Source of the DNA: an uncultured Candidatus Saccharibacteria bacterium
GTDB lineage: Bacteria; Patescibacteriota; Saccharimonadia; Saccharimonadales; SZUA-47
Direction: 5' to 3'
NCBI GenBank assembly: GCA_964419675.1
Contig: CAYQPN010000003.1
Location: 75,985 to 139,984, forward strand
DNA: 64,000 nt
Part shown: positions 10,903-59,326 of the stretch, piece after piece
Position numbering within the stretch: the stretch's first letter is position 1
Layout: each line of letters starts with the position of its first letter
Position numbers and translations under genes: made by a program
Notes under the pieces: generated by a model
Database searches by the model: none
Seen by the model: the letters and a program-made list of their open reading frames with translations, nothing else
Told to the model about the DNA's origin: nothing

Positions 10903-12054
10903 ATGGAACAAAATAACAAGTCTAGTAACAGTGCGTTTAAACCTCCTGTTGATGTAACAATAAAACGCACGCGCAAGTTTGATTTTTCTGGCATGAAAGA
11001 AAAATTTTTGAAGAAGCCAACTAAAAAGCGCCTTTTAATTGTAGCCGGGGCAAGCCTTGGGTTGCTTGTTTTGGGTGTTGGTGCACTTTATTTGTTTGGG
11101 CCTAAACCTGCTGAGATTGGACCTGAGCCAACCGTAGAATCAACTTACGTTGCACCTGTTCCGACCACTATGGCATCACCGCTCACTGGAGTAATAGTAG
11201 AAAAGGCGCTTGCTGAGCGGCCCGTAACGGGAATAATGGTTGAGAACAGCGTGGATGCTAGGCCTCAATCTGGGTTAACAGACGCAGGTATCGTTTTTGA
11301 AGCCATCGCCGAGGGTGGGATTACCAGGTTTTTGACTCTATTCCAAGAAGCTCAGCCAACCAACGTCGGTCCTATACGGAGTGCTAGACCTTACTACGTT
11401 GAATGGGCTGCCGGCTTTGGTTCAAGATATTTGCATAGCGGTGGTAGCGGGGAAGCTTTGGCTCTAATCCGTAGTCTAGGAGTCAAGGACATAGATCACG
11501 GCGCCTATGGCGAGCGAATTGCCAGCCGTGTCTCCAGCCGCTACGCGCCACATAATGTCTACACCAGCATGGAAAGAATTGACGCACTAGGCACAGAACT
11601 TGGATTTACCAGCAGCGAGTTTACTCCTTTTGCACGCAAGGAAGATGTAAAAGCTGAACTACCGACGGCTTCAACAATAAATTTTGATATTTCAGGGCAA
11701 AATTACAATACCAAATACTCCTACGATGCAACATCAAACAGCTACTTAAGAAACATGGCTGGGTTGCCTCACACCGACGAAAATAACGGCAAGCAAATTC
11801 AACCAAAAGTAGTAATTGCATTAATCACTACCTACAGCATACATTCCGACAAAATCCACAGTGTTTATAAAACAACCGGTTCGGGTAGTGCAATTGTCTT
11901 CCAAGACGGTATTGCCACAACTGGAACTTGGAAAAAAGATTCACAAACTAGCTCACTGGGCTTTTTCAACGTAGACGGTACACCGTTACTACTCAACGCC
12001 GGTCAAACGTGGATAACGGCAATACCGGACGGAAGAACAAGTTATACACCTTAG
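10903..12054 (+). CDS. DUF3048 domain protein (YerB-like)
   Basis: 383 aa. TM anchor, then PLTG...RPVTGIMVENSVDARPQSGL...VFEAIAEGGITRFLTLF, which is characteristic of DUF3048. Confidence 0.65.
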   Translation: MEQNNKSSNSAFKPPVDVTIKRTRKFDFSGMKEKFLKKPTKKRLLIVAGASLGLLVLGVGALYLFGPKPAEIGPEPTVESTYVAPVPTTMASPLTGVIVEKALAERPVTGIMVENSVDARPQSGLTDAGIVFEAIAEGGITRFLTLFQEAQPTNVGPIRSARPYYVEWAAGFGSRYLHSGGSGEALALIRSLGVKDIDHGAYGERIASRVSSRYAPHNVYTSMERIDALGTELGFTSSEFTPFARKEDVKAELPTASTINFDISGQNYNTKYSYDATSNSYLRNMAGLPHTDENNGKQIQPKVVIALITTYSIHSDKIHSVYKTTGSGSAIVFQDGIATTGTWKKDSQTSSLGFFNVDGTPLLLNAGQTWITAIPDGRTSYTP

Positions 12055-12077: not shown

Positions 12078-13607
12078 ATGGATTACTTCAGTAAATACAA
12101 GCGTCAATTAGTCAACCGCTCTTTTTTGGCCATTTTTGTACCTGTTATTTTAACAGTGGCTGCTGGGTTTCTAGGAAGTTTACTGGGGCTAGATACAATT
12201 TATGTTACTGCCATTATGCTTGTCGCGGGTCTATGCGGGGCTATTGTAATGACAATTATCATAAGTACGCAGACAAGTAAACCGATTGAGGTTATAGGCC
12301 AAGTTCTAACATATGCTTCACACTCTAACAGAGACAGTTCTGCCCCAAGTGCTGAGTCTTTAATTATTGCTCGTGAATTAGTAGAATCGATTAGCTCACA
12401 GATTTACGAACTAGCTAGTAGCTCGAATACGACGGACTCGACTAACCCGAGTGTGGCTACAACTCCCACGAATTCAAATTTATTTGACCATCTAAGCTTG
12501 CCGGTTTTCGGTATAGATAGGTCTCAAAAGGTAACAATTGTTAATCGTTCCGCAGCTGAATTTTTAGGTAAGACTGTCGCAGATATAGCCGGAAAGCCAC
12601 TTTACGATTCGTTGCAACTGACTTTCCAAGACAATGAGACATTTGATACTTGGTTGGGAAAAATCACTGCTACCGCCGTTACTGGATCTCATAGTTGGAC
12701 AAAAGTTAGACATATACCCCTGGAGGGTGAGCCCAAACAGTTCGACTTGACTGCAAGTTTTAGCAGTGGGAACGAAAGCGGCACTGAAACAATGCTGGTT
12801 TTGTTTGATAAAACAGCTGCGTATGACGATGAAGACCAGCAGGTTGATTTTGTTGCATTGGCTGTCCACGAGCTTAGGACACCCTTAACTATTATGCGTG
12901 GCTACATCGAAGTTTTTGAAGACGAGCTAGGACCAACACTCTCTCCCGAATTAACACAGTTTATGTATAAGATGCATGCTAGTGCACAACAGCTTACAGC
13001 ATTTGTAGGTAATATTTTAAATGTTGCCAGAGTTGAAGAGAATCAACTTTCACTCAAACTACGTTCAGAGTCTTGGCCCGATATCTTAAAGATGGCTATA
13101 GAGGACTTGCAGATGAGGGCTCATGTACATGGCATAACCATTGAGCTACAAATTGCTCAAGATTTACCTGCTGTCGCGGTTGATAGAATAAGCATACACG
13201 AAGTGTTGAACAACCTGGTTGACAACGCAATTAAGTACAGCGAGCAGTCGAATAAAATAATTATTACATCACAGATTAACGCAGACGGACTTGTAGAAAC
13301 AAGTGTCCAAGATTTTGGAATTGGCATGCCGCCGAATGTTGTTAATGAACTATTCCAAAAATTTTATAGAAGTCATAAAAGCAACGTGCGAACTGGTGGT
13401 ACGGGGCTTGGACTATACATTAGTAAAGCACTGGTCAACGCCCACGGTGGCAATATTTGGGTTCGTTCAAAAGAAGGCGAGGGGAGTATATTTAGTTTTA
13501 CAATACTACCGTATGATAAATTATCATCTGAAAAGAAAGCCGGAGAGGATGATATCATTAGAGGAGCCCATGGATGGATAAAAAACCATTCGTTATATAG
13601 GCAATAA
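12078..13607 (+). CDS. sensor histidine kinase
   Basis: 509 aa. Two N-terminal TM helices, H-box HELRTPLT, N-box NLVDNAIKY, DFGIGM and GGTGLGL. Confidence 0.88.
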   Translation: MDYFSKYKRQLVNRSFLAIFVPVILTVAAGFLGSLLGLDTIYVTAIMLVAGLCGAIVMTIIISTQTSKPIEVIGQVLTYASHSNRDSSAPSAESLIIARELVESISSQIYELASSSNTTDSTNPSVATTPTNSNLFDHLSLPVFGIDRSQKVTIVNRSAAEFLGKTVADIAGKPLYDSLQLTFQDNETFDTWLGKITATAVTGSHSWTKVRHIPLEGEPKQFDLTASFSSGNESGTETMLVLFDKTAAYDDEDQQVDFVALAVHELRTPLTIMRGYIEVFEDELGPTLSPELTQFMYKMHASAQQLTAFVGNILNVARVEENQLSLKLRSESWPDILKMAIEDLQMRAHVHGITIELQIAQDLPAVAVDRISIHEVLNNLVDNAIKYSEQSNKIIITSQINADGLVETSVQDFGIGMPPNVVNELFQKFYRSHKSNVRTGGTGLGLYISKALVNAHGGNIWVRSKEGEGSIFSFTILPYDKLSSEKKAGEDDIIRGAHGWIKNHSLYRQ

Positions 13608-13610
13608 AAC

Positions 13611-13985
13611 ATGAAACCAAGAATACTATGTATTGAAGACGAACTATTTATAAGCGAGCTATACACCCGCGCGCTTGAAAATGCCGGATATGATGTTCGT
13701 GTTATTGCAGACGGTCAGGAAGGCTTGCAGGAAGCCCTAGCGGGTAACTACGACATAATCCTACTTGATATCATGCTTCCGACAATGAATGGCGTAGACA
13801 TGCTTAAACTTATGCGTAGCCCAACCGTTAATCCACCGCTCGTAAGCAAAATTATCATTACTACAAATCTTGATCAAAAAGAAGAAATACGCAAACAGGT
13901 TGAACAGATGGCCGACGGCTACTTAATAAAAGCTGAGATTACTCCCCGTGAACTAGTAACATACATCCAGCAAGTTACACAGTAA
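13611..13985 (+). CDS. single-domain response regulator
   Basis: 124 aa starting 4 nt after the kinase stop. ILCIEDE, DIILLDIMLP, GYLIKA. No output domain. Confidence 0.85.
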   Translation: MKPRILCIEDELFISELYTRALENAGYDVRVIADGQEGLQEALAGNYDIILLDIMLPTMNGVDMLKLMRSPTVNPPLVSKIIITTNLDQKEEIRKQVEQMADGYLIKAEITPRELVTYIQQVTQ

Positions 13986-20358: not shown

Positions 20359-20439
20359 CTTAAATTTAACGGTTGCACTTCCACCGTAAAGCCTACATAA
20401 TTAGATTTAAGCAAAAGCACTTTGCTTAGATATTTTTAT

Positions 20440-21657
20440 ATGTTCGGATTTTCTAAAAATAGTAAAGGTTCAAAATCAGGTGGGGGTAATGACCCTTCAC
20501 ATTTTTTGCATGATGAGAAACAAACAGCAGGAGTAATCTTAAATGGTATAGATGACGCTGTTATTCTTATAGACTCACAAAACACTGTGCAAATATTTAA
20601 TCCTGCAGCAGCAAAATTAACGGGTTGGTTACAGAACGAGGCTACTGGCATTGACTATCGGTCAATTCTAAAAGTTGGCGATGAAACCGGAGCATTATAT
20701 GCGGACGCCCAACACCCTTTTTATAAAGTATTTCAGCAGAAACAAACTATCCGAGACACAAGCGCCACAATTACAAAAAAGGATAATACTCTCATATCAG
20801 TCGATATTAATGTATCACCACTACTAGACGAGAAGGGACTAGTTAGTGGTGCGGTGGGTGTCTTCCGTGATGTTTCTGAACAAAGGCAAGAAGAGAAACA
20901 ACGTGCAGACTTTATCTCAACAGCAAGCCACGAAATGCGTACACCGGTTGCAGCGATAGAGGGTTACCTAGCACTTGCACTAAACGACAAAGTTAGTGCA
21001 ATTGACGAGAAAGCCAGGGGGTTTTTAGAAAAAGCCCATGCTTCAACTCAGCACTTGGGCAAGCTATTTTCCGATCTATTGACCAGCGCCAAGGCAGAAG
21101 ACGGTAGACTAACAAGTCACCCCATTCCGGTAGAAATCAATGACTTTACAGAGAAATTGGTAGAGGACCTTAGGTTCCCAGCAGAGAAAAAGGGCCTAAA
21201 ACTCGAGCTTGTTTCCTCTCTGAATGCAACCGTCAAACCGCTTTTGTACGCAACTGTTGACCCAGATAGGCTAAGAGAAGTTATTACGAATCTTTTTGAC
21301 AATGCCGTTAAATATACAGAAGCAGGAACAATAAGCATAGGTGTTACGGGAGATGCGCACGTTGTTCAATTCCACATATCAGATACCGGACCCGGAATTC
21401 CAAAGTCAGATGTTCCACACTTATTCCAGAAATTTTATAGAGTAGACAATTCAGCTACTCGTACAATTGGTGGAACTGGTTTAGGTTTGTTTATATGTAA
21501 AAAAATAATTGAGCTATACTCTGGAAAAATATGGGTTGAAAGCGAAGAAGGCAAGGGGAGTACTTTTTACATAAACTTACCACGGTTAGACTCTGTCAGC
21601 GCAGAGAAACAGACCAGTATTATCACTCCTACTGTAGATTTGACAAGTAATGTATAG
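20440..21657 (+). CDS. PAS-domain sensor histidine kinase (cytoplasmic)
   Basis: ORF from TTG 20422; ATG at 20440. PAS-like region, H-box SHEMRTPV, N-box NLFDNAVKYT, DTGPGI and GGTGLGL. Confidence 0.88.
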   Translation: MFGFSKNSKGSKSGGGNDPSHFLHDEKQTAGVILNGIDDAVILIDSQNTVQIFNPAAAKLTGWLQNEATGIDYRSILKVGDETGALYADAQHPFYKVFQQKQTIRDTSATITKKDNTLISVDINVSPLLDEKGLVSGAVGVFRDVSEQRQEEKQRADFISTASHEMRTPVAAIEGYLALALNDKVSAIDEKARGFLEKAHASTQHLGKLFSDLLTSAKAEDGRLTSHPIPVEINDFTEKLVEDLRFPAEKKGLKLELVSSLNATVKPLLYATVDPDRLREVITNLFDNAVKYTEAGTISIGVTGDAHVVQFHISDTGPGIPKSDVPHLFQKFYRVDNSATRTIGGTGLGLFICKKIIELYSGKIWVESEEGKGSTFYINLPRLDSVSAEKQTSIITPTVDLTSNV

Positions 21658-21735: not shown

Positions 21736-22944
21736 ATGGCAAAAATACTACTAGTAGAAGACGACAATAACTTACGTGAAATATACGAGGCGCGACTTCA
21801 GGCTGAAGGTTATGAAATAGTATCGGCCCGAGACGGAGAAGAAGCACTTACTGTGGCCATGAAAGAGCGCCCTGACTTGATTATTTCTGACGTTATGATG
21901 CCGAAAATCAGCGGTTTTGACATGCTCGACATAATTCGTTCCACTGAAGAGACTAAGAATGTAAAAGTTATCATGATGACTGCACTTAGCCAGGCTGAAG
22001 ATAAGGCAAGAGCAGAAAAGCTCGGCGCAGACCGATATTTAGTTAAATCACAAGTAACATTAGAAGATGTTGCAAAAGTTGCACGAGAGGTTTTAAGTGG
22101 CGAATCTCCAGCGCCAACACCTGCTGTACCAACAATAGCATCGCCGGCACCGGCTCCAGTAGTAAGCACCGTGGCGCCAGAATCAACTGTTGTTACTCCA
22201 CCTCCAACCGCTACAGTCCCAGTAGTCACGCCAATGCCTGCTGTGACACCAACACCCGTGGAGCCTACGGCACTGTCGGCTATAAGCCCAGTTGCACAAA
22301 ATGATAGTTCAATTCCTGCGCCAATCACACCACCTACAACAGATGACAAAGGCAGTAGTGACGATGATGAACAAAGCGCTATTGCAAAACAAATTGAAAG
22401 CTTTATAGATTCCAAAAAAGAAGACTCAACGCCTCAGGCTACATCTACTCTTAATCAAGCAAGCCCAATGGTGGCCCCAACAAATCCGCAAACCTCGCCA
22501 ACTATGCCACCGATTACACCTGCGCCGGTTAGCCCACTGCCACCTGTAGTACAATCTACTCCGGAAATGCCAGATGTAGGAAATAATTCATCCGAAAAAA
22601 AAGTTATCGAACCGATAGTAAATGATGCCGTAGCCTTACCTGATCTTAACGATTTGCTTAAAAAAGAAGAAGAAAAAGAGAAGATGGCAGAAGTTGCGCG
22701 GCAGATTGTAGAAGAAAACAATACACCACCGCCAGCAATTGCCATTGACGCAGCTAACCCTCAAGGAAACTCTGAACCTGTTCACCCAGAACCCGCCGCC
22801 GAGGAAAACTCAAACCCAGAGCCAGTAGCGATCTCAAGCCCAACAAATACTGGCACAAACATTGACGGAGTTATACCCCAACCCCCAGCTTCTCCACCTC
22901 AAAACGATCTACCAGCAGACGACCCAAACAACATCACTTTATAG
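21736..22944 (+). CDS. response regulator receiver fused to a ~280-aa Pro/Thr/Ala/Val-rich low-complexity tail
   Basis: 402 aa. A canonical receiver (LLVEDDNN, DLIISDVMMP, RYLVKS) covers residues 1-120. The remainder is low-complexity PAPTPAVPT... with an acidic/Lys island. Confidence 0.85.
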   Translation: MAKILLVEDDNNLREIYEARLQAEGYEIVSARDGEEALTVAMKERPDLIISDVMMPKISGFDMLDIIRSTEETKNVKVIMMTALSQAEDKARAEKLGADRYLVKSQVTLEDVAKVAREVLSGESPAPTPAVPTIASPAPAPVVSTVAPESTVVTPPPTATVPVVTPMPAVTPTPVEPTALSAISPVAQNDSSIPAPITPPTTDDKGSSDDDEQSAIAKQIESFIDSKKEDSTPQATSTLNQASPMVAPTNPQTSPTMPPITPAPVSPLPPVVQSTPEMPDVGNNSSEKKVIEPIVNDAVALPDLNDLLKKEEEKEKMAEVARQIVEENNTPPPAIAIDAANPQGNSEPVHPEPAAEENSNPEPVAISSPTNTGTNIDGVIPQPPASPPQNDLPADDPNNITL

Positions 22945-53017: not shown

Positions 53018-54379
53018 TTAAACAATTAGTTCGCTTATTTTTATACGCTTTTGTTCAGTTGTGTCTCTGTCCCTAATCGTTACAGAATCATCTTCTAAAG
53101 TATCAAAATCTATAACTATGCAGTATGGGGTGCCGATTTCGTCCTGACGACGGTATCTTTTACCTATATTTCCGTTATCGTCAAACTCACATACATATTT
53201 CTTACTTAATGCCTTATATACTTCCCTTGCCTTTTCAACAAGCTCAGGTTTGTTCTTAAGTAACGGAAAAACCGCATACTGAACAGGTGCAAGCTCAGGT
53301 TTAAGTTTTAACACTGTTCTAGATTCTCCATTTTCTAAAACTTCAACTGAATATGCATCTGACAAAACTGCCATAAAAACTCTACCCATTCCCATTGAAG
53401 TTTCTAAAACCCACGGAATATACTTTTCTTGTGTCTGAGAATCTACATACGACAAATCAACACCTGAAAATTTAGAGTGTTGGGATAAATCATAATCGGT
53501 TCTGTCATGTATACCTTCAACCTCATCAAAACCAAGCGACGGGAAGTTATATTCAATATCCCAAGCATCTTTGGCGTAAAAGACTAGATTCTCATGCTGT
53601 TTCCAGCGTAAGTTTTTCTCATTTATTCCGATATCTAAATACCAGTTCCATCGATCTTGCTTAATTTGCTCGTAAGCTTCTACATTCTCATGTGGTTTAA
53701 TAAATAGCTGTGTATCGGCTTGTTCAAATTCTCTAGTTCTGAAAAGAAAGTTTCTAGGGCTAATTTCATTTCGGAATGCCTTATTTATTTGAGCAACCCC
53801 AAACGGAATTTTTACTCGTGTAGAGTCAACAATATTCTTAAAGTTTAGATATATTCCCTGACACGCTTCTCCCGGTAAATATACAGGCTCACTGCCGTCG
53901 TTTGTGAAATCTCCAAGATTTGATTTAACCAATAAATTAAATGCTTTGACTGAACCGAATTCTTTCTTTCCACATTTTGGGCATTTTATTTTATCCCGAT
54001 TCTCATCAAAAAGTTTATTTAACTCATCTTCAGACATTTTTTCGTCTGCTGTAACACCAATAGTTGCTAGTTCTTTATCTACTCTTATGCGGGTATTGCA
54101 TGATTTACACTCAGCCATTGGGTCAGAAAACCCACTCGTGTGCCCCGAAGCATCCCATACCTTCGGGTGTTTGAACATTGCAGAATCTAGGCCAACATAA
54201 TTTTCTTTTCTATGAACATTTACCGACCACCAAGATTTTTTTATATTATTCAGGAGTTCAACTCCGTAAGGACCAAAATCATAGATTCCCGCCATACCAC
54301 CATAAATTTCAGAACCCTGAAAAATAAACCCGCGTCTCTTGCAGAGACTCACAATATCATCAAGTTTTAAATCGTTCAT
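53018..54379 (-). CDS. glyQS: glycine--tRNA ligase (alpha2 type)
   Basis: 453 aa. N-terminal LCKRRGFIFQGSEIYGGMAGIYDFGPYGVELLNNIKKSWW and class II core motifs. Confidence 0.92.
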   Translation of the reverse strand: MNDLKLDDIVSLCKRRGFIFQGSEIYGGMAGIYDFGPYGVELLNNIKKSWWSVNVHRKENYVGLDSAMFKHPKVWDASGHTSGFSDPMAECKSCNTRIRVDKELATIGVTADEKMSEDELNKLFDENRDKIKCPKCGKKEFGSVKAFNLLVKSNLGDFTNDGSEPVYLPGEACQGIYLNFKNIVDSTRVKIPFGVAQINKAFRNEISPRNFLFRTREFEQADTQLFIKPHENVEAYEQIKQDRWNWYLDIGINEKNLRWKQHENLVFYAKDAWDIEYNFPSLGFDEVEGIHDRTDYDLSQHSKFSGVDLSYVDSQTQEKYIPWVLETSMGMGRVFMAVLSDAYSVEVLENGESRTVLKLKPELAPVQYAVFPLLKNKPELVEKAREVYKALSKKYVCEFDDNGNIGKRYRRQDEIGTPYCIVIDFDTLEDDSVTIRDRDTTEQKRIKISELIV

Positions 54380-54450
54380 TTAAATCTATTATACAGTAAA
54401 TGGGATTGTCAGGTAATGCTTTCAAGGCTCGGGCTTAGTAACGATTTAGG

Positions 54451-54918
54451 CTAAGAGTTCCACCTCTTAACTTCTCTTTCGGTCATTCTATAGCCTAAAG
54501 GTAACGCGCTTTGTCTATTGTTTGGTCTATACCCAAATATATGCTTAAGAACAAGTCTTCCGCGTCTAGTGTTTGGATCAATCAAATTAACTATTGGCTT
54601 GCGCTCGGGTTTATCGGTGCGAACCGAGCCAAATCTTGGTTTGACAGTGCGGTTATCAGCTTCGAATGCGTTAAATCTTTCTTGTAAGCTGAATTCGTCG
54701 TCGTCAAGCGTTTGCTGTGCTCTGTCTATTAACAACCATACATACGCTTCTGGGTCGTTCATCTCTAATTCTTTTGCTGCATCATCTCCTAGATCTTCCA
54801 TAAAAAGAGCTTGGATATTTTCTATTGAGCCGTCGTCACTCAGTGGACTAACGTGTGGCAAATCAAAGCCTAGTATTGGCGTATGATCAGGTTCAATGTG
54901 AATGGGTGTGTCTGACAT
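54451..54918 (-). CDS. hypothetical protein (orphan; acidic N-terminus, basic C-terminus)
   Basis: 155 aa with no motif recognised. Confidence 0.45.
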   Translation of the reverse strand: MSDTPIHIEPDHTPILGFDLPHVSPLSDDGSIENIQALFMEDLGDDAAKELEMNDPEAYVWLLIDRAQQTLDDDEFSLQERFNAFEADNRTVKPRFGSVRTDKPERKPIVNLIDPNTRRGRLVLKHIFGYRPNNRQSALPLGYRMTEREVKRWNS

Positions 54919-54957
54919 GTTAATATATTATAGCAAACATTAGCGCTTTAGTCAACA

Positions 54958-55647
54958 TTAGGCTCTGTGCATCATGATGACTTGTTTCAGCGTTTTGCTT
55001 GGCTCTTTGGATAGTTCCTTCAGATTAGTTACTTTTTGTAATAGTTCTGGTTTTGTAGCATATGACGCAATCTTGAGTAACTTTATTTGATTTGGACTAA
55101 ATTGTCCATTGTCTTTTTGATAAAATGCCATATCGTCATATGAAAATTCATAATGGCTCGATTCTGAGAATTTTTGTGAATTTAATGGTTTTTCAAGATT
55201 TATTCCGCTACCGGCAATATTCAAAATACGCATTGCATACCATAAGAATGTACTGTGAACGTCAACTTCCCCTTCATTCACTGCATATAGCGCTTTGTGT
55301 AGCACTTCAAAGTATTCAGCCTCGCTAGTGTGTTGAGTGTGATCGTCGGCTATTTTTAAAATATCGTAGGCCACCATAGTCGTGGCAACGTCCGAAACAA
55401 TGTTTTTATAGTGCTCTTTTATCCTGGTAGAAATGACTGTTTTTATCTCTCCCCTACCATCAATATAGGTTAGTTCATTAATAGAAAAAATCTCTAATCC
55501 ACCGGCCAACTTACTATTACTTTTGCGAACACCTTTGGCAAGCAAACTTAATTTTCCATTGTTTGGGGTTATAACGGTTACAATTCTGTCGGCTTCAGAA
55601 AAATTTATACGTTTAAGTATTATTGCTTCAGTAACGACACTTTTCAT
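54958..55647 (-). CDS. recO: DNA repair protein RecO
   Basis: 229 aa. The N-terminal OB-fold pattern EAIILKRINFSEADRIVTVITPNNGKLSLLAKGVRKSNSKL is typical of RecO. Confidence 0.85.
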   Translation of the reverse strand: MKSVVTEAIILKRINFSEADRIVTVITPNNGKLSLLAKGVRKSNSKLAGGLEIFSINELTYIDGRGEIKTVISTRIKEHYKNIVSDVATTMVAYDILKIADDHTQHTSEAEYFEVLHKALYAVNEGEVDVHSTFLWYAMRILNIAGSGINLEKPLNSQKFSESSHYEFSYDDMAFYQKDNGQFSPNQIKLLKIASYATKPELLQKVTNLKELSKEPSKTLKQVIMMHRA

Positions 55648-55651
55648 AAAC

Positions 55652-56038
55652 CTAAACTTCTAACAAGTTAAGTGACTCATCTATTAGTTTCTGCAAACTA
55701 GTGGTTGGTTTATACAGATATTTACTGATTTTTAGCAACTTCCAATCACTGCTGGATGAAATGCTATCCGCCACTTTAATAGAACTATGAATAATTAATG
55801 GAACGTCTGCCCAATCATCGTAGCTCCTGAATTCGTATAAAAATTCTGTTCCGCTATGCCCGGGCAATGATAGCTCCACAATAATTATGTCTGGCTTAGA
55901 CTCATCAGCAATTTTAATTGCTTGTTCAGGGGATGAAACAGTGTGCGTTTTAATATTTTGTTTTGCAAATTCGCGTCTCAAACAATCTGCCATTACTCTA
56001 TCTGGTTCAAGCACTAATGCGTTTTTCATCTTTGACAT
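55652..56038 (-). CDS. atypical receiver domain (phospho-acceptor Asp replaced by Glu)
   Basis: 128 aa. The receiver fold is retained (PLIIHSS, KYLYKP), but the DD pocket reads LEPD and the acceptor position reads IIIVELSLPG instead of LLD.MLPG. Confidence 0.75.
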   Translation of the reverse strand: MSKMKNALVLEPDRVMADCLRREFAKQNIKTHTVSSPEQAIKIADESKPDIIIVELSLPGHSGTEFLYEFRSYDDWADVPLIIHSSIKVADSISSSSDWKLLKISKYLYKPTTSLQKLIDESLNLLEV

Positions 56039-56734
56039 CTATATAAACGCAAGCTGGGGGCTAATGCGAAATGTTACTGCCAGCCCTTCTAACCCGTCCT
56101 TTTTGGTCTTTGAAAGTGAAGCATTAAGCAAATTAAACATGTTTCTGGCGGTCAAAAGGTCTGTTGCTGGCCCCGAAACACCACTGAATGGTTGCCTCGT
56201 CGTTCCAGCCACTTTTATTGCCTTAGCGAATGAAAGTTTAGATAAATCTACAGAGTTATTATAAACAGCAACCCTAATTCCACCTCTTGCCCTACTCACG
56301 TCCCAAGTGATAGGTGAAGGTTTTTGAGTAAGCCCTAACATCGCCTGCCACAAACACTCTATGCCAGATTTTAATACTTCCCTATCCGCATCCACTGTGG
56401 CAATACCCGACTGTATAAAGACTTCAGTTTCGCAGCCATGTTCGATAGATAATGGGCTTAAATCTGTAGCTACTTGCGACAATGAACTGCCGATATGGAC
56501 AGGTTCAAGAAGTAATTCTGTCTGGAACATACTCAAACGTTGGTATAAAAGGACGTTATCGATGGTTCTTAGAGCACGGCGAGCCTGCAACGAGATTGGG
56601 CTTCCAGCCTGATCGGCTTCCGCTAACATTTTAATAGACGTAAGCGGTTTTTTTAGTTCTTCTCCCAGCATGAAGACCAAATCGCCTTCACCTAATCCAC
56701 GTTTTAGCCCATTTTGGCTCGAGTGGTCTTGCAT
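56039..56734 (-). CDS. degenerate histidine-kinase-like protein (pseudokinase)
   Basis: 231 aa and colinear with the window's bona fide kinases. The H-box reads LGEELKKPLTSI (His to Glu), the N-box CLWQAM, the G1 box NNSVD and the G2 box GVSGPATDLL. Its stop abuts the receiver start with no gap. Confidence 0.6.
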   Translation of the reverse strand: MQDHSSQNGLKRGLGEGDLVFMLGEELKKPLTSIKMLAEADQAGSPISLQARRALRTIDNVLLYQRLSMFQTELLLEPVHIGSSLSQVATDLSPLSIEHGCETEVFIQSGIATVDADREVLKSGIECLWQAMLGLTQKPSPITWDVSRARGGIRVAVYNNSVDLSKLSFAKAIKVAGTTRQPFSGVSGPATDLLTARNMFNLLNASLSKTKKDGLEGLAVTFRISPQLAFI

Positions 56735-56802
56735 GAACGTTGTTACCCCTGTTTACATATAAGTATACAAGTAATCACTGCAATAAAATATTGCGCTTTT
56801 AA

Positions 56803-57456
56803 CTACGGAATAAAGGTTAGGCTTGGAATGATTATGTCATTGAAGTCACTAAAGGAATCTTGAGATTCAGTAAATAGCTTGATTGTCTTATCTCTTAGAG
56901 GCAATAGAATCATTATTCCCTGTGTCTTTGAAGATATCTCTCCCTCTACTCTCAACCCTAACGTATCTGGTAGCGCAGTTAGACGGAATGCTTGAGCTGT
57001 TAGTTTACCAGAAGCTATAGAGGAACTGAATTTCTTAACTTCTTGATCGTATGTATTACTGACTATCTCAACACGAAACGCATAAAGTTGGTTTGAGGCG
57101 ACTCCTGGAACAACTCTAGGATTTGCGTACACATCCAACACTGTACCAGAGTCTTTATCAACTTGATAAACGCTCCATGTTTTTGGGAAGCTAAATGACA
57201 AAGAGCCGTAGGTTGCTGGTCCAACGTAGGATTGATATGGCGCTTTTTCTCTCTCAACAAAGTCGGCTTCTTTAGCTGTTTCAGCCTTTTGTACAGCCAG
57301 CGTTGAAGCATCAGCTACTTTTTTTTCTACATTATTTTTGTAGTCTTGTCTCTCGGTAAAAGCCCAAAAGCCAAAAGCACTGGAGCCTACAAACAGAGTC
57401 ACAAAAACTGCTACTAAAACTATCGGGGTACTTATTCCTGATTCTCTATTTACCAT
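56803..57456 (-). CDS. hypothetical membrane-anchored extracytoplasmic protein
   Basis: 217 aa with an N-terminal TM (PIVLVAVFVTLFVGSSAFGFWAF). Confidence 0.5.
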   Translation of the reverse strand: MVNRESGISTPIVLVAVFVTLFVGSSAFGFWAFTERQDYKNNVEKKVADASTLAVQKAETAKEADFVEREKAPYQSYVGPATYGSLSFSFPKTWSVYQVDKDSGTVLDVYANPRVVPGVASNQLYAFRVEIVSNTYDQEVKKFSSSIASGKLTAQAFRLTALPDTLGLRVEGEISSKTQGIMILLPLRDKTIKLFTESQDSFSDFNDIIIPSLTFIP

Positions 57457-57501
57457 AAGCTTAATCTTAATCTAACTCCTAAGAACATGCAACACTTACT
57501 C

Positions 57502-57993
57502 TCAACTATACTCATACAAGAACATTCCATTTATTTCTTTAGTAGGCGTTCTACCTTCAATTTTAAACGCAAAACTAACTACTTTAAGTTTATCACCGCC
57601 TAAATACTGAATAACTTTTTTGTCCAATTTGCCCATATATGGTTTTAGTAAGAAAACATACATTCCGTCTGCTTTTGGCCACGGTTTTGTCCAATAATTT
57701 CCCCAGACTATTTTAATGAATTTTTTATAACGATAACTCCTTACTTGAGAATAAATACAGAGTAGAGGGTTCATCTCGTATCCAACAGAATAAATGCCTT
57801 TTTTTGCAGCAGCGATTAGTAGCCGACCATCTCCACTACCAAGTTCAAGCATTGTTTGACCGGGCCTAAGGTTTAGAAGATTAATGGCGTCTTCAACTCT
57901 TGAGCCTAAAGTAGGTAGATATGGTGCTCCAAACATTACTACTGCCGTAAACAAAACAAAAACAACTGCTAAGAATAGATAGAATATACTCAT
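57502..57993 (-). CDS. class I SAM-dependent methyltransferase with N-terminal TM
   Basis: 163 aa with motif I MLELGSGDGRLLIAAAKKG. Confidence 0.72.
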   Translation of the reverse strand: MSIFYLFLAVVFVLFTAVVMFGAPYLPTLGSRVEDAINLLNLRPGQTMLELGSGDGRLLIAAAKKGIYSVGYEMNPLLCIYSQVRSYRYKKFIKIVWGNYWTKPWPKADGMYVFLLKPYMGKLDKKVIQYLGGDKLKVVSFAFKIEGRTPTKEINGMFLYEYS

Positions 57994-57997
57994 CAGT

Positions 57998-58195
57998 TTA
58001 TTTTTCTTTAAGTTTTATTTTACTTATCTTGTTTTTTGCAGTCTCTAATTTTTTTTCTAATTGTTTAATTAACTTTATGCCCTGCTCATAGTCTGCTAGG
58101 AGTAACTCAAGCTCGTCATAATCAGCATTCTCTACCCTACTCAACAATTTTTGGAGTTCTGATTCTAGTTCTTTATACGATTTTTCTTTATTCAT
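57998..58195 (-). CDS. xseB: exodeoxyribonuclease VII small subunit
   Basis: 65-aa helical protein directly downstream of xseA. SYKELESELQKLLSRVE...LE..L..YE.G..L pattern. Confidence 0.8.
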   Translation of the reverse strand: MNKEKSYKELESELQKLLSRVENADYDELELLLADYEQGIKLIKQLEKKLETAKNKISKIKLKEK

Positions 58196-58204
58196 AATGT
58201 ATAC

Positions 58205-59326
58205 CTATACTATACCTTTTACTTCTGCGTTTGCCACACCATCTTTAAACGTAATGTTTATATTTGCACCCGCAGAAACCTGAGAAACTGATGAAATCAA
58301 TTTTCCACCGTCTTGAATTAAGGCATAGCCTCTTTTAAGCGTTGTGCTTGGGTGCATACTAGAAAGAAGCTTTCGGGCCGTTTGCAAATCATGAGCTTTT
58401 GATTCTAGCGCATTTACTAACGAATTTGAAAAAGAGGCTGAAGCTAACTTTAGATTGCTTATCTTAGCTGAAACTTGTTCTAAAACTGTGACAGCAAGAG
58501 AATTCGCCTCATATACAAGCTGTTTTTTAATCGATTTACGATCTGGGAACAGTAACTCTGCAGCATTGCTTGGGGTACTAGCCCGCATATCCGCTGCCAT
58601 CTCGCACAAGCTGACGTCTGTTTCGTGCCCGATTGCAACGAGGGTCGGTATCCTACTGCCGGCTACAGCACGTGTAACTTGTTCTGTGCTATATGCCCCA
58701 AGATCGTCTGCACTTCCACCACCTCTTATCACAACCAGAACATCAACTGTGTCTGCTTGCTGGTTAGCTTGTTCAATAGCGTTAGATATTAATTCTGGAG
58801 CTGAGACGCCTTGGACTTGTACGTCATATAAATGTATTTCAACACCTTGCCACCGTGCATTTAAAATCTTTATAAAATCCGCAAAACCAGCGGACTGTTC
58901 AGAGGTTATTAATCCAATCTTCTCCGGAGCATGCGGAACAAGTCGTTTACGCTCCTGGCTAAAAAGGCCCTCTTTTTCCAACTTTACCTGAAGCAAATTG
59001 GCAGCTTTTTTAATACTTCCTTCACCTACTGGGCGAATTGAACGAATATTCAAATTAAAGCCAAACTGTGGGTGTATTCTTGGCTCAGCAACAATTTCAA
59101 GCATCATTCCTTCTTCAAGTGGCCCAGGCAACATATACACCGTACCAAAACAGCGTAATTTGGACAATTCATCTTTTATGTCACAATAAACCCACTTATT
59201 CTTTGATATGTTGAAGTTTGCGAGTTCACCCACCACAGTGATTGTTGGGTATGCGTATTCGAGTGACTGGTTTAAAACTGCAACAGCATCTGAAACATTA
59301 AATACTGGGTCAGTTATCATGTTCAA
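58205..59326 (-). CDS. xseA: exodeoxyribonuclease VII large subunit
   Basis: 373 aa. N-terminal OB fold (ITVVGELANFNISKNKWVYCDIKDE), VIRGGGSADDL and GHETD motifs. Confidence 0.9.
   Translation of the reverse strand: MNMITDPVFNVSDAVAVLNQSLEYAYPTITVVGELANFNISKNKWVYCDIKDELSKLRCFGTVYMLPGPLEEGMMLEIVAEPRIHPQFGFNLNIRSIRPVGEGSIKKAANLLQVKLEKEGLFSQERKRLVPHAPEKIGLITSEQSAGFADFIKILNARWQGVEIHLYDVQVQGVSAPELISNAIEQANQQADTVDVLVVIRGGGSADDLGAYSTEQVTRAVAGSRIPTLVAIGHETDVSLCEMAADMRASTPSNAAELLFPDRKSIKKQLVYEANSLAVTVLEQVSAKISNLKLASASFSNSLVNALESKAHDLQTARKLLSSMHPSTTLKRGYALIQDGGKLISSVSQVSAGANINITFKDGVANAEVKGIV

Follow-up and report, generated by a model that had tools for sequence, protein, structure and literature searches.

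Pseudo-histidine kinases such as DivL, RetS and PsmA are an established category of signalling protein, as are pseudo-receivers. The acceptor His is missing from 0.9% of HisKA domains and the acceptor Asp from 2.0% of receivers, and several percent of receiver domains overall are pseudo-receivers (PMC12632262). In aspartate-less receivers, Glu most often stands in for the acceptor Asp and frequently acts as a partial phosphomimic, and the activation of pseudo-receivers has been called a mystery (PMC12632262). In a 2025 review, 2 of 20 characterised atypical regulators were non-orphans (PMC12632262). Here we describe two adjacent genes encoding a pseudo-histidine kinase of 231 aa and a single-domain pseudo-receiver of 128 aa, in which both phospho-acceptor residues are replaced by Glu. 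The pair lies in a stretch of 64,000 nucleotides from an uncultured Candidatus Saccharibacteria bacterium (assembly GCA_964419675.1, contig CAYQPN010000003.1, positions 75,985 to 139,984), hereafter the window. We conclude that the pair is an in-situ ortholog and predicted phosphorylation-independent derivative of a genuine two-component system. An earlier note on this DNA had called such paired degeneration unusual, in agreement with the small share of non-orphans in the review.

The kinase-like gene (56039..56734; coordinates within the locus refer to the reverse strand throughout) encodes a soluble DHp and CA core without a sensor or transmembrane domain. Its DHp helical hairpin (residues ~16-70, 56525..56689), with helices 16-40 and 45-70 in the AlphaFold2 (AF2) model, contains the H-box GEELKKPLT and aligns to DivL, CpxA and the kinases of the window. 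Glu25 (GAA, 56660..56662) occupies the position of the acceptor His. It was aligned by hhalign to the acceptor His of both genuine kinases in the window (LGEELKKPLT versus AVHELRTPLT and ASHEMRTPVA), which are located at 12078-13607 and 20422-21657 and are each of PAS-HisKA-HATPase_c architecture. A profile search of the PDB placed Glu25 on the acceptor position of DivL, a Tyr, and of CpxA (chain 4biz), which has a Glu there, and DivL was the second-best PDB sequence match. In a column-wise comparison with a canonical ortholog at the same locus elsewhere (L020, described below), the acceptor His is replaced by Glu25, and the N-box Asn, the G1 box DxGxG and the G2 box GxGLG are absent from the CA-like alpha/beta domain (residues ~76-222, 56069..56509). 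Pfam searches recovered HisKA below threshold (16.9 bits against a cut-off of 26.9) and did not report HATPase_c at E-values up to 1. The phosphatase motif of HisKA kinases is incomplete as well, with Glu26 at H+1 but Lys29 at H+4, a position occupied by L, Q, T, K or R across orthologs.

The kinase fold is nevertheless predicted to persist despite these losses. The AF2 model, based on the family alignment, shows the DHp helical hairpin and the alpha/beta CA domain with a predicted local distance difference test (pLDDT) score of 80.6, and Foldseek searches of the PDB retrieved the kinase cores of ZraS, DivL, HK853, RetS and CpxA at E-values of 1e-9 to 1e-12. The former ATP lid (residues 172-186) is disordered with low model confidence. 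It carries a conserved RQP motif, and the motifs WQA and ATD are specific to the subfamily of the window. The retained fold, the lost catalytic residues and the purifying selection reported below make the 231-aa protein a pseudo-histidine kinase in the definition of Collins and Childers (cited in PMC12632262), with its inactivity deduced from sequence.

The receiver gene (55652..56038) directly follows the kinase-like gene, with the TAG stop (56039-56041) abutting the ATG (56036-56038) at the junction (56036..56041). An alternative in-frame ATG (Met4), 9 nt downstream, is an equally plausible start as judged by ortholog N-termini. The encoded protein matches Response_reg in Pfam (43 bits against a cut-off of 30.2) and contains no further domain, including the C-terminal CCT of plant-type pseudo-response regulators (PRRs). 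Its AF2 model has a (beta-alpha)5 fold (pLDDT 88.3), the closest structures found by Foldseek include KdpE, DivK and RR468 (TM-score ~0.8), and the best NCBIfam match is DivK-type. Glu55 (GAG, 55874..55876) aligns with KdpE Asp52 and PhoB Asp53. The Mg pocket residues Glu11-Pro12-Asp13 (56000..56008) were aligned by hhalign with PhoB Glu9-Asp10-Glu11, so that the first acid is kept and the second is replaced by Pro12. Ser85 aligns with PhoB Thr83, and Lys110-Pro111 align with the conserved Lys-Pro, Lys110 (55709..55711) being the active-site Lys conserved in homologs. The protein hence lacks the acceptor Asp and the Mg2+-binding DD pair of phosphorylatable receivers and retains their Ser/Thr and Lys. 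Judged by these aligned residues, it is a pseudo-receiver, or aspartate-less receiver, as defined in PMC12632262. The earlier note had read the abutting frames, the His-to-Glu replacement with loss of the N, G1 and G2 boxes, and a receiver with Glu for Asp, an altered acidic pocket and retained Ser/Thr and Lys; the sequence itself and the alignments to the window kinases, to L020 and to KdpE and PhoB agree with it at each of these points, and neither acceptor position received a His or an Asp in the profile alignments.

The most conserved surface of the receiver is the beta3-alpha3 loop together with helix alpha3 (HSGxEFLYEFRSY; residues 61-72, HSGTEFLYEFRS, 55823..55858). F66, Y68, E69, F70, R71, Y73 and W76 are invariant in 31 aligned receiver homologs, and across 57 pseudo-receivers the conservation of H61, G63, E65, F66 and E69 is 96% or higher. 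Canonical orthologs carry a weaker form of the motif, HNGIEVLHELQSY. The alpha3 face is thus a candidate output interface.

Canonical orthologs at the identical locus reveal the origin of the pair. At locus L020, a homolog of the 217-aa membrane protein encoded upstream of the pair is followed by the kinase P0185, which carries AHELKTPLT, NMFDNAIKYS, RDEGVGV and GSSGLGLY and passes the Pfam thresholds for HisKA and HATPase_c. The receiver at L020 reads IEDD...ILDIML and hence has an EDD pocket and the acceptor Asp. A search with P0185 returned more than 100 canonical HisKA and HATPase_c proteins of ~240 aa in Saccharibacteria and other Patescibacteria. Three of these matches (L102, L103 and L104) lie in a context of xseAB...membrane protein-histidine kinase-response regulator-recO-glyS, with Asp receivers and an EDD pocket. 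The canonical orthologs share with the window pair the neighbours and the sizes, as well as RxQP in the lid, a C-terminal QL, H-x-G-x-E...SY in the receiver and YLYKP. They differ in having the His, N, G1 and G2 boxes and the EDD...Asp receiver, and in passing the HisKA and HATPase_c thresholds. These orthologs show that the ancestral system consisted of a short cytoplasmic DHp and CA kinase and a single-domain receiver encoded between the gene of a membrane-anchored protein and recO. Their position at the identical locus identifies the window pair as an ortholog of a two-component system. A paralogous family unrelated to two-component systems was considered as well and is rejected by this synteny.

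The dead form is widespread and conserved. Homologs of the pseudokinase numbered 69, with 40-64% identity and lengths of 155-257 aa (most 225-243), and the few with a named source are Saccharimonadales. Among 26 aligned close homologs, Glu25, Glu26, P30, L31, I34, E39, H80, W129-Q130-A131, Q181, T191-D192 and Q227 are invariant. P182 is likewise invariant together with Q181 in the window subfamily, and in a set of 62 dead kinases both reach 85% conservation or more. For the receiver, 49 homologs were found, and E11, P12, E55, K110 and P111 are invariant in the 31 that were aligned. An exhaustive profile search of the pseudokinase family retrieved 341 cluster representatives at E-values up to 1e-10, of which the best 150 are mostly 200-254 aa long. 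Only 3 of these best 150 representatives kept the His, the 144 that could be aligned at this position having Glu in 106, Arg in 7, Asp in 6, Gln in 6, Tyr in 4 and His in 3. Pairwise ratios of non-synonymous to synonymous substitution rates (dN/dS) between close orthologs, reported for pairs with dS below saturation, were 0.08-0.24 for both genes. It is well supported that both genes are under purifying selection and functional rather than pseudogenes. The earlier note had proposed a phosphorylation-independent, permanently engaged signalling or scaffolding module, and had named random substitution among orthologs as a sign of plain pseudogenisation. Substitutions proved non-random, with Glu25 in 26 of 26 close homologs and Glu55 in 31 of 31 receiver homologs, and the alignments, the ortholog conservation and the dN/dS together give good support to a functional, phosphorylation-independent pair, whereas permanent engagement and a scaffolding role are putative.

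To survey acceptor states, the upstream membrane protein was used as an anchor independent of the pair, which recovered 80 more metagenomic loci. At the His position, 84 unique kinase-like orthologs have Glu (69), Asp (8), His (3), Gln (2), Asn (1) or Ala (1), and the ATP boxes are kept in a single one, L020. The kinase/receiver states of 59 unique pairs were Glu/Glu in 49, Asp/Glu in 3, His/Asp and Asp/Asp in 2 each, and His/Glu, Asn/Glu and Ala/Glu in 1 each; the peptide pattern of the anchor and the ranking by similarity disfavour the canonical clade, so that 49 of 59 describes the wider relatives of the window pair and not a frequency across all Saccharibacteria. The receiver acceptor is Glu in 55 of the 59 unique syntenic pairs, and both the Ser/Thr and the Lys are kept in all 57 scorable pairs. 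The pocket triplet is EPD in 45 of 59 pairs, with EDD confined to canonical orthologs. Every one of the 59 pairs has an acid at the first pocket residue; at the second, an acid occurs only in the canonical form. A receiver Asp never co-occurs with a kinase Glu (Fisher p = 4.6e-4, uncorrected for phylogeny).

ATP boxes and second pocket Asp are missing from every non-canonical ortholog, even from those with His, Asp or both still in place (L021, L019, L057 and L077). Because these keepers are already without ATP boxes and pocket Asp, the loss of catalysis appears, from the aligned residues, to have preceded or accompanied the replacement of the acceptor residues. In L021 (1334-2414, forward strand), the kinase-like protein lacks ATP boxes and has an intact phosphatase-type H-box, AHDLKTPL, and the acceptor Asp is retained in its receiver, whose pocket reads ESD. 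This ortholog could represent a phosphatase-only or phosphotransfer-only stage. In L057, L077 and L078, the His position of the kinase is Asp (LSDDLALPL), and two of the three have Asp as receiver acceptor and one has Glu, which shows that both sites accept an acid other than Glu.

The states were compared on a neighbour-joining tree built from both flanking proteins (447 columns, 58 taxa, 200 bootstraps). The canonical clade is split from the rest in 83% of bootstrap replicates. The His/Asp locus L021 pairs with L055 (Glu/Glu) at 100% bootstrap, and L057 and L077 (Asp/Asp) group with L078 (Asp/Glu) at 87.5%. The window falls into a clade of 17 taxa (100% bootstrap) that are all Glu/Glu except L026 (Asn/Glu). 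Either the His-to-Glu and Asp-to-Glu replacements have multiple origins, or there was a joint regain of His and Asp. Repeated loss and joint regain would both imply linked selection on the two acceptor positions.

Fitness evidence for the module comes from the Saccharibacterium Southlakia epibionticum, in which the gene order of the locus is matched (Table S1 in Wang et al. 2023, PMC10633639). Transposon sequencing (Tn-seq) calls in that study are listed for T0/T1/T2 as non-essential (NE), growth defect (GD) or essential (ES). The genes SEML1_0242/0243 (xseAB) and SEML1_0244 (methyltransferase) are NE at each time point, and SEML1_0245 (hypothetical, 663 bp), a core family enriched in Patescibacteria, is ES/ES/ES (PMC10633639). 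The histidine kinase SEML1_0246 (708 bp) is GD/GD/ES, with insertions falling from 32 in the input to 8, 3 and 1, and the response regulator SEML1_0247 (366 bp), which overlaps 0246 by 4 nt, is NE/GD/ES (PMC10633639). Downstream, SEML1_0248 (recO) is NE/NE/GD and SEML1_0249 (glyS) is GD/ES/ES, essential from T1 (PMC10633639). As insertions in recO are tolerated, polarity on glyS does not explain the depletion of SEML1_0246/0247. Orthology of SEML1_0246/0247 to the window pair follows from gene order and sizes alone, and SEML1_0246 matches HATPase_c and HisKA (Table S2 in PMC10633639). The S. epibionticum pair is hence probably canonical. The main text of PMC10633639 does not discuss these S. 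epibionticum genes. The locus is thus linked to fitness in S. epibionticum, the only Saccharibacterium for which Tn-seq data exist, and the adjacent gene for the membrane protein is essential there.

The window also contains a genuine pair at 12078-13985 (forward strand), a 509-aa PAS-HisKA-HATPase_c kinase with a 124-aa single-domain receiver, preceded by a DUF3048 protein (10903-12054). The similar genes SEML1_0318/0317 of S. epibionticum are largely dispensable in Tn-seq, with 0318 NE throughout and 0317 NE/NE/GD. Adjoining the second PAS kinase (20422-21657), a gene at 21736-22944 (forward strand) encodes a 402-aa protein with a genuine N-terminal receiver, its Asp present. The following ~290 residues have no Pfam match and point to an uncharacterised output domain.

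How might a pair without catalysis signal? We hold it probable, with moderate confidence, that the pair is a functional, phosphorylation-independent derivative of a genuine two-component system, with a locked-on receiver and the dead kinase as its partner. Glu55 would sit in the phosphoryl pocket with Ser85 and Lys110 and hold the receiver in an active-like state, as in PhoB D10A/D53E. By analogy with DivL-DivK, the simplest view of the dead kinase core is that it persists as a dimeric docking partner of the receiver, with Glu25 in the docking site. Protein-protein contacts, most likely at the alpha3 face of the receiver, would carry the output. This output might feed the process that is served by the canonical system, itself of importance for growth in S. 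epibionticum. The identity of the substitution pattern with PhoB D10A/D53E favours a locked-on receiver with a dead kinase as binding partner. The earlier note had suggested that Glu acts as a phosphomimic, and this part of its proposal gains indirect support from the analogy to PhoB. Several observations weigh against the locked-on model. The phosphomimic model was disproved for some pseudo-receivers (PMC12632262). Without a bridge between them, the facing carboxylates of Glu25 and Glu55 would be mutually repulsive. The conserved WQA, RQP and ATD motifs in the former ATP pocket could indicate ligand binding and hence a switchable rather than constitutive module. Covariation between kinase and receiver (mutual information with average product correction, 60 pairs) was strongest for W129, H80 and D192 of the kinase with S57 and T64 of the receiver; these top pairs are subfamily markers, so that the signal is phylogenetic and does not reliably indicate contacts. 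Finally, the S. epibionticum pair being probably canonical, its phenotype shows the importance of the module and not of the dead form.

The pair might still be a switch, in which a ligand in the remodelled ATP pocket, or a divalent cation held by Glu25 of the kinase and Glu11, Asp13 and Glu55 of the receiver, controls association. The polar residues W129-Q130-A131, Q181-P182 and T191-D192 at the former ATP site, invariant in the window subfamily, are consistent with such a role. An acid appears to be selected at both acceptors (Glu or Asp in 77 of 84 kinase orthologs and in 59 of 59 receivers), and the first position of the Mg pocket is acidic throughout. The pocket residues vary between subfamilies, however (WQA versus G-Y/Q, ATD versus A-G), which leaves no family-wide ligand site, and the systematic loss of the second Mg-binding acid weakens the classical metal site. 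We therefore regard a ligand or metal switch as possible but unlikely. Somewhat less likely still is that the dead kinase acts mainly on other kinases, in the style of RetS-GacS or DivL-CckA, by heterodimerising with or docking on a genuine PAS kinase, with a modulating role for the pseudo-receiver. In favour of this, the window encodes two genuine PAS-HisKA-HATPase_c kinases together with receivers, and the top structural matches include DivL and RetS, DivL ranking second by PDB sequence search. HK853, ZraS and CpxA score equally, though, and the matches thus reflect the common kinase fold. Translational coupling and correlated acceptor evolution point to the adjacent receiver as primary partner, and the canonical ancestor was already sensor-less and paired with this receiver.

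Residual, non-canonical phospho-signalling, through His80, another receiver Asp or a different donor in lineages that keep His and Asp, is considered very unlikely. His80 is invariant in the window subfamily but replaced by Ser in most of the wider family. Orthologs of the L021 type without ATP boxes do keep His and Asp with an intact phosphatase-type HDLKT H-box, but the window proteins lack the acceptor His, the acceptor Asp and the N, G1 and G2 boxes. We find it barely credible that the genes are functionless relics decaying under relaxed selection in a reduced genome. Reductive genome evolution predicts the loss of every catalytic signature, as observed, but the open reading frames (ORFs) are intact and constant in length, synteny is fixed at all loci examined, dN/dS is low in both genes, motifs stay invariant at 35-60% overall identity and acceptor-site substitutions are non-random. 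The pseudogene reading is rejected on the grounds of dN/dS and conservation.

A more far-reaching reading is tentative and rather doubtful. Instead of being independent phosphomimics, Glu25 and Glu55 might be the two halves of a fossilised phosphotransfer complex, an obligate kinase-receiver complex frozen in transfer geometry and reached repeatedly. Glu25 would insert at the phosphoryl site of the receiver, where either Lys110 and Ser85 or a cation to which Glu11 and Glu55 also bind would hold it. Repeated origin is suggested by His/Asp and Asp/Asp orthologs nesting beside Glu/Glu pairs with strong bootstrap support. If true, such a complex would be a natural, convergently evolved, enzyme-free two-component system. 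It would also make the workings of pseudo-receivers and pseudokinases directly testable, given the canonical form at the same locus in relatives and the genetically manipulable S. epibionticum.

The genomic context of the pair is highly stable. In 12 GTDB species representatives, the gene order is LPG_synthase_TM protein, xseA, xseB, small methyltransferase, 217-aa membrane protein, kinase-like protein, receiver and recO, often followed by glyS. The distant family members and metagenomic loci with gene maps read have the identical order, and all of these loci, the 12 GTDB ones included, are attributable to Saccharimonadia. The first receiver start lies 1 to 17 nt past the kinase stop in the 11 GTDB loci with enough downstream sequence, and the called genes overlap by 1 or 4 nt in several further loci. 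Directly downstream of the receiver, recO is found at all loci with enough sequence. The 217-aa protein with an N-terminal membrane anchor (56803..57456) precedes the pair, canonical or dead, wherever the upstream flank was recovered, and its gene ends 68 nt before the kinase-like gene. Pfam and PDB sequence searches gave no significant match for this protein, which has the conserved motifs YPKTWS and LLPxRDKTIKxWTE. The label Mog1p/PsbP-like for this family derives solely from the published, structure-based annotation of the syntenic SEML1_0245 (Table S2 in PMC10633639). The 217-aa protein could be the missing sensor of the sensor-less kinase.

Downstream of the pair, recO (54958..55647; RecO_N and RecO_C Pfam matches) starts 4 nt past the receiver stop and probably belongs to the same operon. 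A scan of 54300-58300 for promoters and terminators gave counts not above those of shuffled sequences, and the operon structure is accordingly deduced from spacing alone. A promoter-like site at 54927-54955 (TTGACT, 17 nt spacer, TG-TATAAT; 11 of 12 consensus matches) directly follows the recO stop, upstream of a 155-aa ORF (54451-54918) and glyS. The site suggests that the operon carrying the pair ends at recO. The 155-aa ORF between recO and glyS has no Pfam match and is weakly conserved, with one partial tblastn match in L010 and other small genes at this place in other loci. On the other side, 57502-57993 encodes a 163-aa class I S-adenosylmethionine (SAM)-methyltransferase-like protein with weak DOT1/CMAS matches. 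Its gene always lies between xseB and the membrane-protein gene, and the S. epibionticum counterpart is non-essential.

In the open-access literature searched, we found no report of an adjacent cognate pair with both partners dead, both acceptors acidic and canonical orthologs at the same locus, and the main texts of PMC10633639 and PMC11665869 do not describe the pair. A close natural parallel is DivL-DivK of Caulobacter crescentus, where a kinase core without acceptor His, Tyr in DivL, is likewise kept to bind a single-domain receiver. The best sequence and structure matches of the pseudokinase include DivL, and DivK is one of the closest structures of the receiver. DivL, however, is a large multi-PAS membrane protein, whereas the window kinase consists of 231 aa of bare core. 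As a genuine Asp receiver, DivK is phosphorylated by other kinases, so its contact with DivL depends on phosphorylation. In reverse signalling of the DivL-DivK type, the DHp of the pseudokinase binds the active (phosphorylated or mimicked) receiver and passes this state on to another kinase. The partners in the window are both dead and encoded by adjacent genes, and the likeness is limited to fold and architecture. PsmA of the Streptomyces polarisome also has the acceptor His replaced (Glu in S. venezuelae) and degenerate ATP motifs, and acts by protein-protein contacts (PMC12963549). PsmA differs as a large hybrid protein with a variable residue at the His position (Glu, Asp, Gln, Val or Tyr) and a retained receiver Asp (PMC12963549). 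It also lacks the acidic residue at H+1, which the window subfamily keeps.

On the receiver side, the laboratory mutant PhoB D10A/D53E (PDB 2jb9, deposited as constitutively active) equally combines removal of the second pocket acid, Asp-to-Glu replacement and retained Thr/Ser and Lys. The mutant is of a DNA-binding regulator and has Ala in the pocket, whereas the window protein is a natural single-domain receiver with Pro there; the two are compared by their substitutions alone. Several pseudo-receivers are important or essential in reduced genomes, for example HP1043. ChxR, HP1043, FrzS and CmrT are recognised as PF00072 and lack phosphotransfer residues, as does the window receiver (PMC12632262). 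None of the pseudo-receivers treated there is described with a dead cognate kinase, and most carry an output domain, which the window receiver does not (PMC12632262). Plant PRR/TOC1 and Ascomycete Rim15 likewise have Glu for the acceptor Asp in a receiver-like domain that is conserved and functional. They are eukaryotic proteins of several domains, under the control of Ser/Thr phosphorylation and without an adjacent kinase-like partner, and represent evolutionarily unrelated events.

The preservation of the pair suggests that an ultrasmall, host-dependent lineage hard-wired a signalling output instead of deleting it, which points to an important process under control of the module. Canonical and intermediate states (His/Asp without ATP boxes, Asp/Asp, Asp/Glu and His/Glu) trace a path from a working to an enzyme-free system. 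Nearly all previously studied cases are orphans without a reference state, whereas the locus described here combines a conserved cognate pair, with predicted loss of catalysis in both partners, with living canonical orthologs as a reference.

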